DNA from: Candidatus Nomurabacteria bacterium
GTDB taxonomy: Bacteria; Patescibacteriota; Patescibacteriia; HK-STAS-PATE-3
DNA length: 64,000 nucleotides
Reading direction: 5' to 3'
NCBI GenBank assembly: GCA_023898465.1
Contig: CP060223.1
Location: 896,001 to 960,000 of the forward strand
Part shown: one piece after another, positions 18,993-28,338 of the stretch
How the letters are laid out: the number at the start of each line of letters is the position of its first letter
Position numbering within the stretch: the first letter of the stretch is position 1
Translations under genes and position numbers: made by a program
Notes under the pieces: model-generated
What the model was told of the DNA's origin: nothing
The model's input: the letters and a program-made list of their open reading frames with translations, nothing else
Database searches by the model: none

Positions 18993-19068
18993 GCGCGCCT
19001 AGCTCAATGGTTAGAGCAGTCGGCTTATATCCGACCGGTTCCAGGTTCGAGCCCTGGGGCGCGCACCA
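18993..19068 (+). tRNA. tRNA-Ile (anticodon UAU), CCA encoded
   Basis: Hand-folded cloverleaf. Acceptor gcgcgcc/ggcgcgc. Anticodon arm gtcgg-cuUAUau-ccgac. T arm ccagg-ttcgagc-cctgg. Confidence 0.85.
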
Positions 19069-22714: not shown

Positions 22715-23649
22715 ACATTGCCGCTATAGAAAAAGATATCGAAGTAGACGCCGCACATGACGGGGCGCGTTTAGATCGCTTCCTGGTTGATCATATTGAG
22801 GGCATTTCACGCGCTGAGCTGCAACGTTGGATTAAGCAAGGTGAGGTTCGAGTGAATGGGAAAAATGCTATTCCTCATCAAGCGCTGAAAGTTTGCGATC
22901 GCATTCACATCGAGCACCAAGCATCCGAACAACACACGCCGGATGCTCTAGCTGCTATTCAAGTGCTAGCCGAAGAAAAAGATTTCCTCATCATCTCAAA
23001 ACCTTCTGGCGTCCTCATGCACGCCACACCAAATTCGCACGAACAAACTTTAGCTGACTGGCTACTCGCGCACTACCCCGAGTTGCATGGTGTCGGCGAA
23101 GATCCTACACGACCTGGCATTGTGCATCGCCTTGATCGTGACGTATCCGGCCTCCTGCTCGTTGCCCGCACTCCAGACGCATTCATCTATTATAAAAATC
23201 TTTTTCAGGAACGGGCAATGGAAAAAGTATATATTGCCTTAGCTCACGGGAGCGTTGAAGAAGATGGAATGATTGAACTGCCCATCTCCCGTTCTCAATC
23301 AAACCGCCGGAGGATGGCAGCCCGAGCTGATGGTATAGGACGTCCGGCAATTACCGCCTATCATATTTTGAAGCGCTATCCTCATCTGACCTTACTTGAG
23401 GTGAAGCCAAAGACTGGACGCATGCATCAAATCCGCGTCCATCTCAATGCCATTGGCCACCCGATTGTGGGCGACCGTCTCTATGTAAAAAAGGCCAGCA
23501 AGGCCACCCAACTGCGACGACCCTTCCTCCATGCCCATAAACTAGCCTTTGTCGACCAAGAGGGCAAAGAAAGGGCCTATACTCTAGCAATACCCCAGGA
23601 ATTACAGGAGTATCTGGATACGCTTGACGAGAAACACGAAAATAGCTAG
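22711..23649 (+). CDS. RluA-family 23S rRNA pseudouridine synthase (RluD-like, S4 domain)
   Basis: [14 protein letters not shown] catalytic motif. ATGA overlap with the cca stop. Confidence 0.85.
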
Positions 23650-23689
23650 ACTGAGGGCCGATTTACATTTTCATTACTTTAGAAAAAAC

Positions 23690-24025
23690 ATGTCAGAAAC
23701 ACTAGCTCCGCTGCATGACAGCCTTCCTGAAGTGAAGTCAGGTCAGCAGGTCCGAGTCCATCAAAAAATCAGCGAGGGGGACAAGGAACGCAATCAGGTT
23801 TTTGAAGGCGTTGTCTTAAAGCGCAGTGGCGGCAAAGGCCCATCAGCCAGTATTACTGTTCGCAAAATTGGTGCTGGTGGCATTGGTGTAGAACGCATCT
23901 TCCCTCTTCATTCACCTGTCATCACCAAGGTTGAAGTAGTGGGTGAAGCAAAGACACGACGAGCAAATCTCAGCTATCTCCGTAAGCCTCGCGCCAAGCA
24001 GCTGAAGATGAAGTCAGTCAAATAA
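23690..24025 (+). CDS. rplS: 50S ribosomal protein L19
   Basis: [16 protein letters not shown]...[24 protein letters not shown]...RRANLSYLR. Confidence 0.9.
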
Positions 24026-24029
24026 GTTC

Positions 24030-24046
24030 CTGCGCGGGTGGCGGAA
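24030..24046 (+). repeat. 17-nt direct repeat, copy 1 (ctgcgcgggtggcggaa; equals 2 nt plus the first 15 nt of tRNA-Leu-GAG)
   Basis: Exact match to 24377-24393. It is followed by two perfect 8-bp hairpins at 24048-24069 and 24073-24094. Confidence 0.8.
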
Positions 24047-24122
24047 CCCCGAACCACGCAGGGTTCGGGAGTCCTGCACCTCACAAGGTGCAGGGTGGGA
24101 GTAAACATTATGTACTCTTACT

Positions 24123-24371
24123 ATGTCATTCGTTTATATCCTGCTACTTAATAATCAAGAGCTCTACGTCGGATTTACTGCCGACCTTAATCGACGACTT
24201 GAAGAGCATCAACTAGGTAGGAGTGGTTACACAAGTAAGTACCTACCAGTAAAACTACTTTTTTATGAAGCCTTTACCAGCGAAGTGGATGCGCGGCGAA
24301 GAGAGAAATATTTAAAAACGAGTAAAGGTAAATCAACGATACGGATGATGCTCCGTACTACACTGCAGTAA
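24123..24371 (+). CDS. GIY-YIG nuclease-domain protein (82 aa, stand-alone)
   Basis: FVYILLLNNQELYVGFTADLNRRLEEHQ...REKYLK has the GIY-YIG core motifs. Confidence 0.8.
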   Translation: MSFVYILLLNNQELYVGFTADLNRRLEEHQLGRSGYTSKYLPVKLLFYEAFTSEVDARRREKYLKTSKGKSTIRMMLRTTLQ

Positions 24372-24378
24372 TATATCT

Positions 24379-24464
24379 GCGCGGGTGGCGGAATGGTATA
24401 CGCGCTAGCTTGAGGTGCTAGTGGCCGCAAGGCCTTGGAGGTTCAAGTCCTCTCCCGCGCACCA
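24379..24464 (+). tRNA. tRNA-Leu (anticodon GAG), type II, CCA encoded
   Basis: Acceptor gcgcggg/cccgcgc. Anticodon arm ctagc-uuGAGgu-gctag. Long variable arm ggcc-gcaa-ggcc. T arm ggagg-ttcaagt-cctct. Confidence 0.85.
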
Positions 24465-24575
24465 CGTGAAGCGTGGTGCTAAATAGCTGAGCAAAATTAG
24501 ACATACCACCGTAGCAAAAGCTGCGTTGCTTTTAAATTGGATAGACTCTTCACTGCTTAAACTCAAATGGTCTTC

Positions 24576-24797
24576 TCAGATGAGTATTAGCAAAACACAC
24601 ACAAGAATTTGCCCTAGGAGAAGTCCTGCACCAACCTGACGACGACCATCAATAATCCGTGCAAATCCAAGTGCAAAGAAAACTATAAAACCGCCTGATA
24701 CAAAAACTAAACTAGCAGGCGCTTGCATGAGCGCTATGTTCCATGCAAAAAACTGATAGAGAAAACTGAGAACGCAAAAAATTATTACTTTTTTCAT
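24576..24797 (-). CDS. hypothetical small membrane protein (73 aa)
   Basis: Three hydrophobic segments. No SD checked. Weak call. Confidence 0.3.
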   Translation of the reverse strand: MKKVIIFCVLSFLYQFFAWNIALMQAPASLVFVSGGFIVFFALGFARIIDGRRQVGAGLLLGQILVCVLLILI

Positions 24798-24923
24798 AAA
24801 AGGAAATGGACATCGTATTTGTATATATTTAATCGCACGCCTAGCTCTTTTGTTTCATGAAAGCTCGCTGTATTAATTCCAAAATCATGCTACTATGCTA
24901 GCAAGTAATTTTACTCTACCTCT

Positions 24924-25163
24924 ATGAAAAAAATTCTCGCTACCTTTTCATTCATACTTTTAGCCAGTCCATCCATTGCCTCAGCCCACACTGGCGTAGA
25001 ACACACAGGGACTTTTTGGCATATTTTTCTCCACCTGCTTAGCGAACCAGATCACATCTTCATAATAGGATCTATCGTTATCCTGGGTTATGGCGTACTG
25101 CTTCATACGAAACCACAGAGGAGTTTATCTCGTGTTCCACGTGGAAGCATTGCTAAGTATTGA
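24924..25163 (+). CDS. small secreted/membrane protein with HupE/UreJ-like N-terminal His motif (possibly a truncated remnant)
   Basis: The signal peptide ends in SIASA. The mature end is HTGVEHTG...FLHLLSEPDHIFII, which compares with the HupE/UreJ pattern AH.G...F.HP..G.DH. It has only one TM after the motif, whereas full-length family members have about 6. Confidence 0.3.
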   Translation: MKKILATFSFILLASPSIASAHTGVEHTGTFWHIFLHLLSEPDHIFIIGSIVILGYGVLLHTKPQRSLSRVPRGSIAKY

Positions 25164-25203
25164 CTTCCCTAGGCTAATCGCGTAATAATCAGGCCTGTCC
25201 CAT

Positions 25204-25280
25204 GGGCGGTTAGCTCAGTTGGTTAGAGCGCCTCGTTTACACCGAGGAGGTCGGGGGTTCGACTCCCTCACCGCCCACCA
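25204..25280 (+). tRNA. tRNA-Val (anticodon UAC), CCA encoded
   Basis: Acceptor gggcggt/accgccc. Anticodon arm cctcg-uuUACac-cgagg. Confidence 0.9.
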
Positions 25281-25395
25281 CACTTAGCGTGGCCGACCAT
25301 ACAAACCATGGCTAGTAATTGAGGACGCGCTCTATAGATGTAAGTAGTGACTTTTTGCTATACTCATCAGGTACTAACTCCTAACTTTTTATTTC

Positions 25396-26682
25396 ATGAA
25401 AATATCTGTAATTGGCGCCACCGGCTACGTCGGTCTCGTCTCAGCAACCTGCCTTGCCGAAATTGGCCATACGGTAACTTGTTTTGGTAGAAACGCAGAA
25501 GCGATAAATAAATTACAGCGTGGCAATATTCCTATTTATGAACCCGGCTTGAACGAACTAGTCAAAAAGAATATAAAGGCAAAGCGTCTTCGCTTCACCA
25601 CGAATTTTGATCTAGCAGTAAAAGAAAGTCTCGCAATCTTTATTGCCGTAGGAACACCTCCGCTACCAAACGGTAAAGCAGACCTACGCGCCGTATTTGA
25701 AGTTGCACAACGTATCGGGCAAAGCATGACCGACTATAAGGTTATTGTTGATAAAAGCACTGTGCCAGTTGGAACGGGCCAAGAGGTGAAGCACATTATT
25801 GCAAAGGAATACTCAGGAAGATTTGATGTTGCTTCATGTCCAGAATTTTTGCGCGAGGGTTCAGCTATTGAAGACTTCATGCATCCAGATCGAGTGGTTA
25901 TTGGTACTGATTCTGAAAAAGCAAAAAGGGTTATGCTTGATATTTTCAAACCCCAGAAGACTACTAAGCTCACTACAAATATTGAAAGTGCCGAACTTAT
26001 TAAGTATGCTTCCAATGCTTTCTTGGCCACCAAAATTTCATTTATCAATGAGATATCCAACCTTTGCGATTTAGTCCGGGCTGATGTTGAGGAAGTCGCT
26101 CGAGGTATGGGCCTAGATAAGCGTATTGGACAAAGTTTCTTAAAGGCTGGAGTGGGATACGGCGGCAGCTGTTTCCCTAAGGATGTGAGTGCCTTAAAAG
26201 AACTTGCGGGATCTAGTGGCTATGACTTTCAGTTACTTAAGGCTGTCATTGAGGTAAACAATACACAACGATCAGTCGTCATTGCAAAAGCAAAACAACT
26301 ACTTGGTTCCTTGCGGAACAAACACATCGGCGTACTTGGACTGGCTTTTAAGCAAAATACTGATGATGTACGGGAGTCTGCTGCCATAGACATTATTAAA
26401 CTGCTGCAAAAGGCTGGTGCAAAAATTACTGCTTTTGACCCAGTGGCTACAGAAAAAGCAAAAAGTAAGCTTACTCGCGTAAAGTATGCCAAGTCAGCCA
26501 AGGAAGCATGTAAGCAGACTGATCTCCTTGTCATTGTGACTGAGTGGCCTGAATTCGCTCAGCTTGATTGGAAAAAAATCCGTCCAACTATGAGACAAGC
26601 AAAAATTGTTGATGGACGTAACCTGCTTGATCCAATAAAGATGCGAGAGTTGGGGTATCAATATCTCAGCGTAGGTCGATAG
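25396..26682 (+). CDS. ugd: UDP-glucose 6-dehydrogenase
   Basis: MKISVIGATGYVGLVSATCLAEIGH Rossmann N-terminus and the GYGGSCFPKD catalytic Cys motif. Confidence 0.9.
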   Translation: MKISVIGATGYVGLVSATCLAEIGHTVTCFGRNAEAINKLQRGNIPIYEPGLNELVKKNIKAKRLRFTTNFDLAVKESLAIFIAVGTPPLPNGKADLRAVFEVAQRIGQSMTDYKVIVDKSTVPVGTGQEVKHIIAKEYSGRFDVASCPEFLREGSAIEDFMHPDRVVIGTDSEKAKRVMLDIFKPQKTTKLTTNIESAELIKYASNAFLATKISFINEISNLCDLVRADVEEVARGMGLDKRIGQSFLKAGVGYGGSCFPKDVSALKELAGSSGYDFQLLKAVIEVNNTQRSVVIAKAKQLLGSLRNKHIGVLGLAFKQNTDDVRESAAIDIIKLLQKAGAKITAFDPVATEKAKSKLTRVKYAKSAKEACKQTDLLVIVTEWPEFAQLDWKKIRPTMRQAKIVDGRNLLDPIKMRELGYQYLSVGR

Positions 26683-28146: not shown

Positions 28147-28213
28147 GTGAACCTCTTATCTGTACATTTGTCAAGTTAAAAAAAACTACTACGCAGATGT
28201 AGTATGTTTTCTC

Positions 28214-28227
28214 TGGTGGACCCTACC
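28214..28227 (-). repeat. duplicate of the last 14 nt of tRNA-Ala (ggtagggtccacca) preceded by a GC hairpin
   Basis: Exact copy of the 3' acceptor strand plus CCA of the tRNAs at 28263 and 29946. The adjacent ccccgc-cca-gcgggg hairpin replaces the T arm. Confidence 0.7.
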
Positions 28228-28262
28228 CCGCTGGGCGGGGTCAGCTCTGTATGTTGAGATCT

Positions 28263-28338
28263 TGGTGGACCCTACCGGGCTCGAACCGGTCACCTCCGCG
28301 TTGCAAACGCGGCGCTCTACCAAATGAGCTAAGGGCCC
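28263..28338 (-). tRNA. tRNA-Ala (anticodon UGC), CCA encoded
   Basis: Reverse complement gggccct...; G3:U70 present. Anticodon arm ccgcg-uuUGCaa-cgcgg. Confidence 0.9.

Follow-up and report, generated by a model that had tools for sequence, protein, structure and literature searches.

A 64,000-nucleotide (nt) stretch of the genome of a Candidatus Nomurabacteria bacterium (contig CP060223.1, positions 896,001 to 960,000; hereafter the window) carries a cassette of approximately 347 bp (24030-24376) between rplS and the gene for tRNA-Leu(GAG). The cassette begins with a dead copy of the first 15 nt of the tRNA; two hairpins and a gene for an 82-amino-acid (aa) GIY-YIG nuclease follow, and the intact tRNA gene comes last. 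It is a member of a recurrent kind of GIY-YIG cassette nested in tRNA genes, which is apparently undescribed. The features of the locus, in window coordinates, are:

23624..23652, plus strand: promoter-like site upstream of rplS, the only one on the plus strand before the cassette (consensus match)
23690..24025, plus strand: rplS, ribosomal protein L19 (Pfam PF01245, E = 4.6e-33)
24030..24046, plus strand: upstream repeat copy; two flanking nt and a dead copy of tRNA-Leu positions 1-15, ending in the D-loop at 15/16
24048..24069, plus strand: hairpin 1; CCCGAACC, loop ACGCAG, GGTTCGGG (cccgaacc/ggttcggg), a perfect 8-bp stem
24073..24094, plus strand: hairpin 2; CCTGCACC, loop TCACAA, GGTGCAGG (cctgcacc/ggtgcagg), a perfect 8-bp stem
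24095..24122, plus strand: leader of the nuclease open reading frame (ORF), with a third predicted stem-loop inside
24096..24098, plus strand: TGG, continuing the tRNA sequence beyond the break, near the start of the leader
24123..24371, plus strand: stand-alone GIY-YIG gene, 82 aa, of the UPF0213 / prokaryotic Slx1-like type (Pfam PF01541)
24377..24393, plus strand: downstream repeat copy; two flanking nt and positions 1-15 of the live tRNA
24379..24464, plus strand: intact tRNA-Leu(GAG), 7 nt past the nuclease stop codon (ARAGORN; Rfam, 55 bits)
24510..24535, plus strand: terminator-like hairpin with a T-rich tail, after the tRNA (consensus match); likely the end of the rplS-cassette-tRNA transcription unit

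The promoter and terminator calls are consensus matches only, and a consensus scan finds no promoter-like site between rplS and the tRNA. The arrangement is real and not an assembly artefact, because it is present in two independent assemblies (loci L116 and L001).

Within the window, the 17-nt sequence CTGCGCGGGTGGCGGAA has exactly two occurrences (24030-24046 and 24377-24393); with up to three mismatches allowed, shuffled sequences average 0.15 matches. An earlier note on this DNA had reported both copies of this direct repeat and had taken the second to be the true start of tRNA-Leu(GAG). Both statements hold: ARAGORN and Rfam both place the tRNA at 24379-24464. The two perfect 8-bp hairpins and the stand-alone 82-aa GIY-YIG ORF, which the note had described between the repeats, are also found at the positions listed above. 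The description can be refined, as the break between tRNA positions 15 and 16 places the junction in the D-loop, from where the duplication extends back to approximately the tRNA start. The inserted unit consists of the hairpin pair, the leader, the GIY-YIG ORF and a fresh copy of tRNA positions -2 to 15. The region 24026-24130 has a folding energy of -48.7 kcal/mol (z = -4.8 against shuffled sequences). Neither a second copy of either hairpin motif nor a second GIY gene is present in the 64-kb window. Another hairpin lies directly after tRNA-Leu(GAG), at 24458-24478 (GCACCACG-TGAAG-CGTGGTGC); the ACCA of the tRNA forms part of its stem, and it is retained, with changes, in L001 and L116.

The ORF product matches the Pfam GIY-YIG domain PF01541 (E = 3.6e-14). 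Residues Y5, Y15, G17, R25, H29, E61 and K65 are invariant among 34 homologues; they have no C-terminal Asn in common, which fits the UPF0213 / prokaryotic Slx1-like cluster. When compared with PDB structures, the homologue profile matches the UPF0213 structures 1zg2 (3.7e-13) and 1ywl (3.2e-12), and Slx1 more weakly. The AlphaFold2 model (pLDDT 93.7) consists of three strands plus helices; its best Foldseek matches are 1zg2 (UPF0213 protein BH0048) and the Slx1 nuclease domain, with TM scores of 0.60-0.67, and I-TevI is a weaker match. The protein is the catalytic domain alone, at 82 aa, and the C-terminal DNA-binding module is absent. It falls within both the GIY-YIG superfamily and the UPF0213/Slx1-like cluster; sequence and model together suggest a minimal, catalytically intact GIY-YIG domain of the Slx1/UPF0213 branch. 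The clade has a C-terminal tail of its own, RREKYLKT-KGK. The family is represented by two structural-genomics structures, without an assigned function. Viral carriage is scarcely seen: there is one weak relative in 2.9 million viral contigs (IMG/VR) and no meaningful match in PHROGs.

Gene calls in this family show two peculiarities. Many of the GIY ORFs extend into the downstream tRNA gene by up to 49 nt (P0006, P0029, L020, L024, L081), and the C-terminal residues of such ORFs are translated tRNA sequence (e.g. ...VAEWYTR). Many database entries also have N-terminal extensions; start codons have probably been called within the hairpin region.

Filled sites were found in L116, where rplS is 99% identical to that of the window, and in L001, where it is 88% identical. 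In L118 (rplS 65%, same acceptor stem) the site is empty and the rplS stop codon lies 18 nt before tRNA-Leu(GAG); in L117 (rplS 65%), also empty, 8 nt separate the two. When metagenomes were scanned with a 37-mer of tRNA-Leu(GAG), 26 loci were returned, none of which contains a GIY gene; rplS lies directly upstream of the tRNA in 11 of the 26. This brings the cassette-free rplS-tRNA-Leu relatives to 13. Since these 13 loci have rplS followed by tRNA-Leu(GAG), this order is ancestral and the cassette is an insertion in one lineage. Locus L105 contains two tandem degenerate 5' copies of tRNA-Leu(GAG) with upstream flank before the intact tRNA (~690-815), and neither GIY gene nor hairpins. The earlier note had proposed a nuclease-encoding cassette inserted at, or duplicated from, the tRNA 5' end; the empty sites, together with the further copies described below, support this. 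They contradict the alternative it had named, a fixed ancient duplication with no empty sites and no other copies.

Constraint was estimated from the comparison of the window with L001, between which rplS DNA is 82% identical. In the GIY ORF, synonymous divergence (dS) is ~0.99 and nonsynonymous divergence (dN) is ~0.10; the dN/dS ratio of 0.10 indicates purifying selection. Neither the 17-nt dead tRNA fragment nor any position of the hairpin stems has changed, and the fragment is identical in L116 too. Under an assumed ~55% identity at neutral sites, the probability of 51 unchanged pseudo-copy and stem sites is ~1e-13. The loops of the hairpins have diverged, and conservation is poor in the leader that joins hairpin 2 to the ATG; since stems and fragment are conserved amid diverged loops and leader, the hairpins and the dead fragment are functional parts and not debris. 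In ten related loci (the window and nine others), compensatory changes retain pairing in both hairpins; at two stem depths there are three types of Watson-Crick pair. All hairpins of the Leu clade share the apical ACC...GGT and the basal CC...GG without variation. The hairpins are a conserved, clade-specific part of the element rather than incidental to it. With dS of ~1 between two carriers, the cassette is old and stable in this lineage, and mobility is apparent on evolutionary timescales only. Between the end of rplS and the dead fragment there is an indel of ~76 nt (window 24016-24029, L001 355-430), which gives the L19 proteins of the window and L001 different C-termini.

Homologues were scanned using one genome per species. 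At least 582 relatives were found and the best 80 loci were analysed; as these were picked by similarity to the window protein, the frequencies below describe this clade and not all UPF0213 proteins. A wider family search (E up to 1e-3) gave 6122 clusters at 50% identity. Hosts of the analysed homologues are mostly Candidate Phyla Radiation (CPR) bacteria. Non-CPR hosts are labelled Lentisphaerae, Kiritimatiellae, Zixibacteria, Nitrospirae and Auribacterota, and some bin labels may be wrong.

The nuclease genes are strongly associated with tRNA genes on the same strand. A tRNA starts within -50 to +20 nt of the ORF stop in 26 of the 80 loci and ends 0-320 nt upstream of the ORF in 38; only three adjacent tRNAs lie on the opposite strand. 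The tRNA density is 4.6 per kb beside the ORF end vs 0.10 per kb in the remaining flanks. The earlier note had suggested a search of the genome for further copies of the hairpin-plus-GIY-YIG unit next to other tRNAs. The full layout, with a partial 5' tRNA copy, hairpins, GIY-YIG gene and intact tRNA, recurs in many other genomes, at genes for tRNA-Gln, Ser, Leu, Trp and Arg. Abutting GIY genes are present at tRNA-Tyr and tRNA-Glu as well, though with no partial copy detected.

Two configurations can be distinguished, and they form separate clades in the nuclease tree. Where the tRNA follows the ORF, as in the window, the ORF is usually preceded by a partial 5' copy of that tRNA. The unit then consists, in order, of the tRNA 5' part, the hairpin pair, 3-19 nt that continue the tRNA past the break, the leader and the ORF, which ends 0-15 nt before the intact tRNA or overlaps it. 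Where the tRNA precedes the ORF, the intact tRNA is followed by hairpins and then by the ORF; in L060, L065 and L077 the stretch of the tRNA from the T-loop to its 3' end is repeated downstream. In a third clade there is no tRNA nearby, and the ORF lies between inverted repeats of ~20 nt (CCCGGTAGTGAAA...TTTCACTACCGGG).

Several loci add variants to these layouts. Third-clade loci include L047, L072, L084-L086, L062, L067, L022 and L053; L085 has an additional 14-nt direct repeat. One third-clade unit, of 329 bp, is shared by a Saccharibacteria bin and a Nomurabacteria bin at 85% identity, and its flanks in the two are unrelated. In L014 (2323-2490), L027 (2380-2470) and L077 (2347-2430), tandem hairpin arrays lie directly after tRNA 3' ends, and the final 4-9 nt of the tRNA (AGCC, CTCCGCC) are repeated after each hairpin unit. 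In L023 (2214-2761) a 5S rRNA gene (Rfam match, 149 nt) is followed by two ACC...GGT hairpins and then by a GIY homologue; the association with tRNA genes may thus extend to rRNA genes.

The hairpins interrupt the dead tRNA copies at the following positions: 7/8, 12-13/14, 15/16, 21-22/23, 32/33, 35-36/37 and the T-loop (TTCG^AATC). For 26 of the 27 hairpin junctions, the ARAGORN cloverleaf leaves one or both of the adjoining nucleotides unpaired. The type of hairpin varies together with the nuclease clade. In the largest clade the junction is TCG^AA, whether it lies in the T-loop (GGTTCG^AATCC) or, for tRNA-Ser(CGA), in the anticodon loop, and the hairpins of this clade have 4-nt loops and GTC/GAC-type apices. 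The clade of the window occupies tRNA-Leu D-loops with CC-N4-ACC / GGT-N4-GG hairpins and 6-nt loops. L024 has a decayed hairpin module without a GIY gene at the exact site of the window (GGCGGAA^TGG), in a different tRNA-Leu. The repeat length follows the break position, ranging from 17 to ~63 nt across loci. A fixed offset between junction and leader, which would be the signature of a staggered cut, was considered and rejected, as the offset varies from 3 to 19 nt.

Several hairpin insertions in one dead copy are common, as in L003 (D and anticodon loops) and L036 (four sites). This is expected if insertions keep occurring and survive only in a non-essential copy. L030, in which a D-loop junction is followed by AATCC of the T-loop type, was dropped as proof of a switch between sites, since a deletion between hairpin sets explains it equally well.

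There are signs of both transfer and amplification. Between L013 and L021, and between L047 and L072, which belong to different CPR lineages, the cassette alone aligns (81-85% identity) and the flanks are unalignable. Between L028 and L038 the cassette is 87% identical and the flank 74%. The dead copy differs from the live tRNA in L070, L026 and L030; this fits import of the dead copy with the cassette. L011 contains three identical tandem units of 394 bp, and L037, L070, L016 and L049 have two ORFs each. An origin from decayed tandem arrays, in which the upstream flank of the dead copy would be a GIY 3' end, held only in L028 (34 nt); no decayed GIY 3' end was found upstream of the dead tRNA copy in the window, L001 and 11 other loci.

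Two other tRNA genes in the window deserve mention. At 18993-19068 ARAGORN places a tRNA-Ile with the anticodon UAU, which is an uncommon bacterial means of reading AUA. On the minus strand, tRNA-Ala(UGC) (28263-28338) is followed, 24 nt beyond the CCA, by a T-arm-like hairpin (CCCCG-CCCAG-CGGGG); next come an exact 14-nt copy of the tRNA 3' end (GGTAGGGTCCACCA), a terminator-like hairpin and a T run. The region 28176-28338 is a partial 3' duplication without a GIY gene and could be the scar of a downstream-type cassette.

The region 24030-24376 is probably a selfish homing-type cassette, nested in tRNA-Leu(GAG), which restores its target by partial duplication. The nuclease would cut a cassette-free tRNA gene at a loop-coding position: between D-loop positions 15 and 16 here, and in the T-loop (GGTTCG^AATCC) in the largest sister clade. 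A copy with the cassette would then serve as the template for repair of the break, and the two tRNA portions would be the sole arms of homology. Since the cassette carries its own 5' part of the tRNA, the tRNA would remain functional; partial duplication would here take the part that splicing plays for endonucleases carried by introns. The ORF, which has no promoter-like site of its own, is probably expressed by read-through of transcripts that start at the rplS promoter; RNase P, cutting at the 5' end of the tRNA, would separate the tRNA from the mRNA. Tandem arrays would arise when the nuclease cuts the live copy and recombination out of register follows. Candidate roles for the hairpins are a binding site for the nuclease, disruption of the target and protection of the mRNA 5' end.

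The closest functional parallel is SegB of phages T4/T6, a free-standing GIY-YIG homing endonuclease located in a tRNA gene cluster. SegB recognises the T-arm sequence GGTTCRANTCC and homes into segB-less phages, and its own genome is not immune (PMC2330249). According to a 2026 study, the site at which SegB cuts inside tRNA genes is RAWTSGAAC, and SegB drives a recombination-dependent amplification in which a unit of segB plus tRNA-Tyr is repeated in tandem; the amplification junction uses a microhomology that the 5' end of the tRNA shares with the 3' end of segB, and SegB homologues are enriched near tRNAs in phages (PMC13096335). Judged by its letters, RAWTSGAAC can be read as the reverse complement of GTTCGAATC. 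In the window, as with SegB, the nuclease gene lies beside its presumed target and homologous sites in relatives are empty. The hairpin site of the largest sister clade (GGTTCG^AATCC) matches the SegB target sequence, and the junctions between ORF end and tRNA start, as well as the tandem arrays, match SegB amplification products. The proteins differ: SegB, a member of the I-TevI/UvrC branch, is 221 aa long and includes a DNA-binding part, whereas the window protein is of the 82-aa Slx1/UPF0213 type. Membership of the SegB / I-TevI sequence family was considered for the window protein and rejected, as the match to TIGR01453 is sub-threshold and there is no binding module. Furthermore, SegB is phage-borne while the cassette nuclease is found in a cellular genome; the hairpin modules and stable dead tRNA fragments belong to the cassette and are not described for SegB; and the window site is in the D-loop, not in the T-loop of the SegB target.

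By sequence and fold, the best matches of the nuclease are the UPF0213/Slx1-like proteins (BH0048, EF2693, YhbQ), which share its minimal domain and lack of auxiliary domains. In a 2006 survey of GIY-YIG proteins, members of the prokaryotic Slx1-like group are regarded as repair nucleases with vertical inheritance, and no link to tRNA genes is stated (PMC1564403). The window clade differs in its RREKYLKT-KGK tail and in its selfish-element context. In CPR rRNA genes, non-intron insertions with GIY-YIG ORFs are found mostly at the tops or bases of stem-loops; tRNAs are not mentioned (PMC11270868). These insertions resemble the cassette in their CPR hosts, structural RNA genes and loop placement, a likeness drawn from their published description, and the homologue with hairpins just after the 5S rRNA gene in L023 is a further point in common. 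Unlike the cassette, they lie inside the rRNA genes and no restoring duplication is reported for them (PMC11270868). Full-text literature searches, which found SegB, the 2006 survey and the CPR rRNA paper, gave no description of the tRNA-nested architecture.

Elements that integrate at tRNA genes through attP/attB sites are also similar, in that the insert carries part of the tRNA, the gene is restored and direct repeats flank the insert. They use tyrosine or serine recombinases and the 3' part of the tRNA; the cassette has no recombinase and, in the window clade, uses the 5' part. REP (repetitive extragenic palindromic) sequences with their RAYT transposases, and the insertion sequences (IS) of the IS200/IS605 type, likewise combine short conserved hairpins with one small nuclease gene, and hairpin-only copies exist. 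However, these systems have HUH Y1 transposases and are dispersed genome-wide, whereas here the nuclease is GIY-YIG and the hairpins are found at tRNA and 5S rRNA genes only.

Several observations weigh against a simple homing cassette. In most loci the duplication starts 0-7 nt before the tRNA regardless of where the break lies, for which simple homing does not account. Cleavage and transfer by the nucleases of this clade are deduced from sequence, and a catalytic domain of 82 aa without a DNA-binding domain is not expected to be sequence-specific alone. The live tRNA in the filled allele retains the presumed target, so that immunity is unaccounted for; the same applies to SegB. The empty relatives are fairly distant (rplS identity of 65% or less), and the D-loop of L118 differs at the site. 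At the window locus the cassette has been stably inherited over dS of ~1, is present in a single copy in 64 kb and gives no sign of recent movement. Finally, purifying selection of this strength is unexpected for a fixed homing gene unless there is recurrent homing or a host benefit.

Two other explanations are less probable. The hairpin pairs themselves could be the primary mobile unit, similar to REP sequences or miniature inverted-repeat transposable elements (MITEs), which inserts into single-stranded loops of tRNA and rRNA genes. The GIY-YIG protein would then be a structure-specific nuclease that mobilises the hairpins in trans, and the tRNA duplications would be survivable by-products, which persist because insertions in the live copy would be lethal. 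This explanation is unlikely, although hairpin-only insertions in dead tRNA copies (L003, L036, L024), the tandem hairpin arrays with tRNA 3'-end repeats (L014, L027, L077), the junctions at unpaired cloverleaf positions, the co-variation of hairpin type with nuclease clade and the close structural relationship to Slx1-type branched-DNA nucleases all agree with it. The hairpins are seen only beside tRNA or 5S rRNA genes and GIY genes rather than dispersed, with one copy in the window, and GIY-YIG enzymes are not known to perform strand transfer. It also overlaps with the homing-cassette reading rather than excluding it. A domesticated host factor, co-transcribed with tRNAs, which resolves hairpins or R-loops at strongly transcribed tRNA genes or acts on RNA and for which the duplications are scars, is quite unlikely. 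It would sit well with the dN/dS of 0.10, the stable inheritance at one locus and the strictly same-strand placement directly before or after tRNAs; in addition, the UPF0213/Slx1-like clade is classed as vertically inherited repair nucleases and one TrmH fusion hints at RNA metabolism (PMC1564403). A host factor is harder to reconcile with the sporadic distribution, the use of different tRNAs from genome to genome and the 13 relatives that are empty at this locus. Nor does it fit several copies and tandem arrays per genome, similarity confined to the cassette between genomes with unrelated flanks, or joint conservation of hairpins and pseudo-copy with the ORF.

The remaining explanations have little in their favour. 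A decayed old tandem duplication of tRNA-Leu with an unrelated ORF in between by chance is very improbable. The arrangement is conserved in the two closest relatives, and partial tRNA duplications without GIY genes do exist (L105 and tRNA-Ala(UGC) of the window); however, the composite architecture is found at more than 25 loci, with at least five tRNA identities and in several phyla, and the pseudo-copy and hairpin stems are perfectly conserved at dS of ~1. Recurrence and constraint effectively refute it. The likelihood of an integrase-type island with att repeats, or of a group I intron with its homing endonuclease in tRNA-Leu, is close to nil. The insert is associated with a tRNA and does have direct repeats on both sides, and group I introns often carry GIY-YIG genes. 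Yet only ~330 bp lie between the repeats, with a single 82-aa GIY-YIG ORF and no integrase, and the repeat is the tRNA 5' end (positions 1-15), not the 3' end. An integrase-mediated island at a tRNA site was therefore rejected, with no recombinase and the wrong tRNA end; so was a group I intron, as there is no ribozyme core and the live tRNA is uninterrupted. The match to the group I intron endonuclease family (NCBIfam TIGR01453) is also far below the cut-off (22.3 bits vs 56). An Rfam scan of 23000-25500 with E up to 10 returned the two tRNAs and sub-threshold matches, none of them in the insert, and no intron, ribozyme or cis-element. An IS element or MITE was also rejected, as there are no terminal inverted repeats at the cassette ends and the repeat length is not fixed.

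The homing-cassette reading, if correct, has consequences beyond this locus. Most tRNAs in small genomes are expected to be single-copy and essential. Tentatively, these cassettes may represent a new class of mobile element, in which a minimal Slx1-type GIY-YIG nuclease and clade-specific hairpins invade loop-coding positions of tRNA genes, and perhaps also 5S and other rRNA genes, while sparing the gene through duplication of its stretch from the break to the gene end. Alongside introns and inteins, homing elements would then have a third means of inhabiting an essential gene. It would provide a cellular parallel to SegB, in which T-arm cleavage and nuclease-driven tRNA amplification are extended from phages to cells. 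It would also account for dead fragments of tRNA genes, and for tandem arrays of tRNA plus ORF, in small genomes such as those of CPR bacteria. Should the enzymes recognise hairpins or the structure of tRNA genes, they might serve as very small structure-guided nuclease tools. For the nuclease family, which is small in protein size and widespread, the finding would assign a concrete role, and much of what is now called the UPF0213 repair nuclease family would move into selfish DNA.

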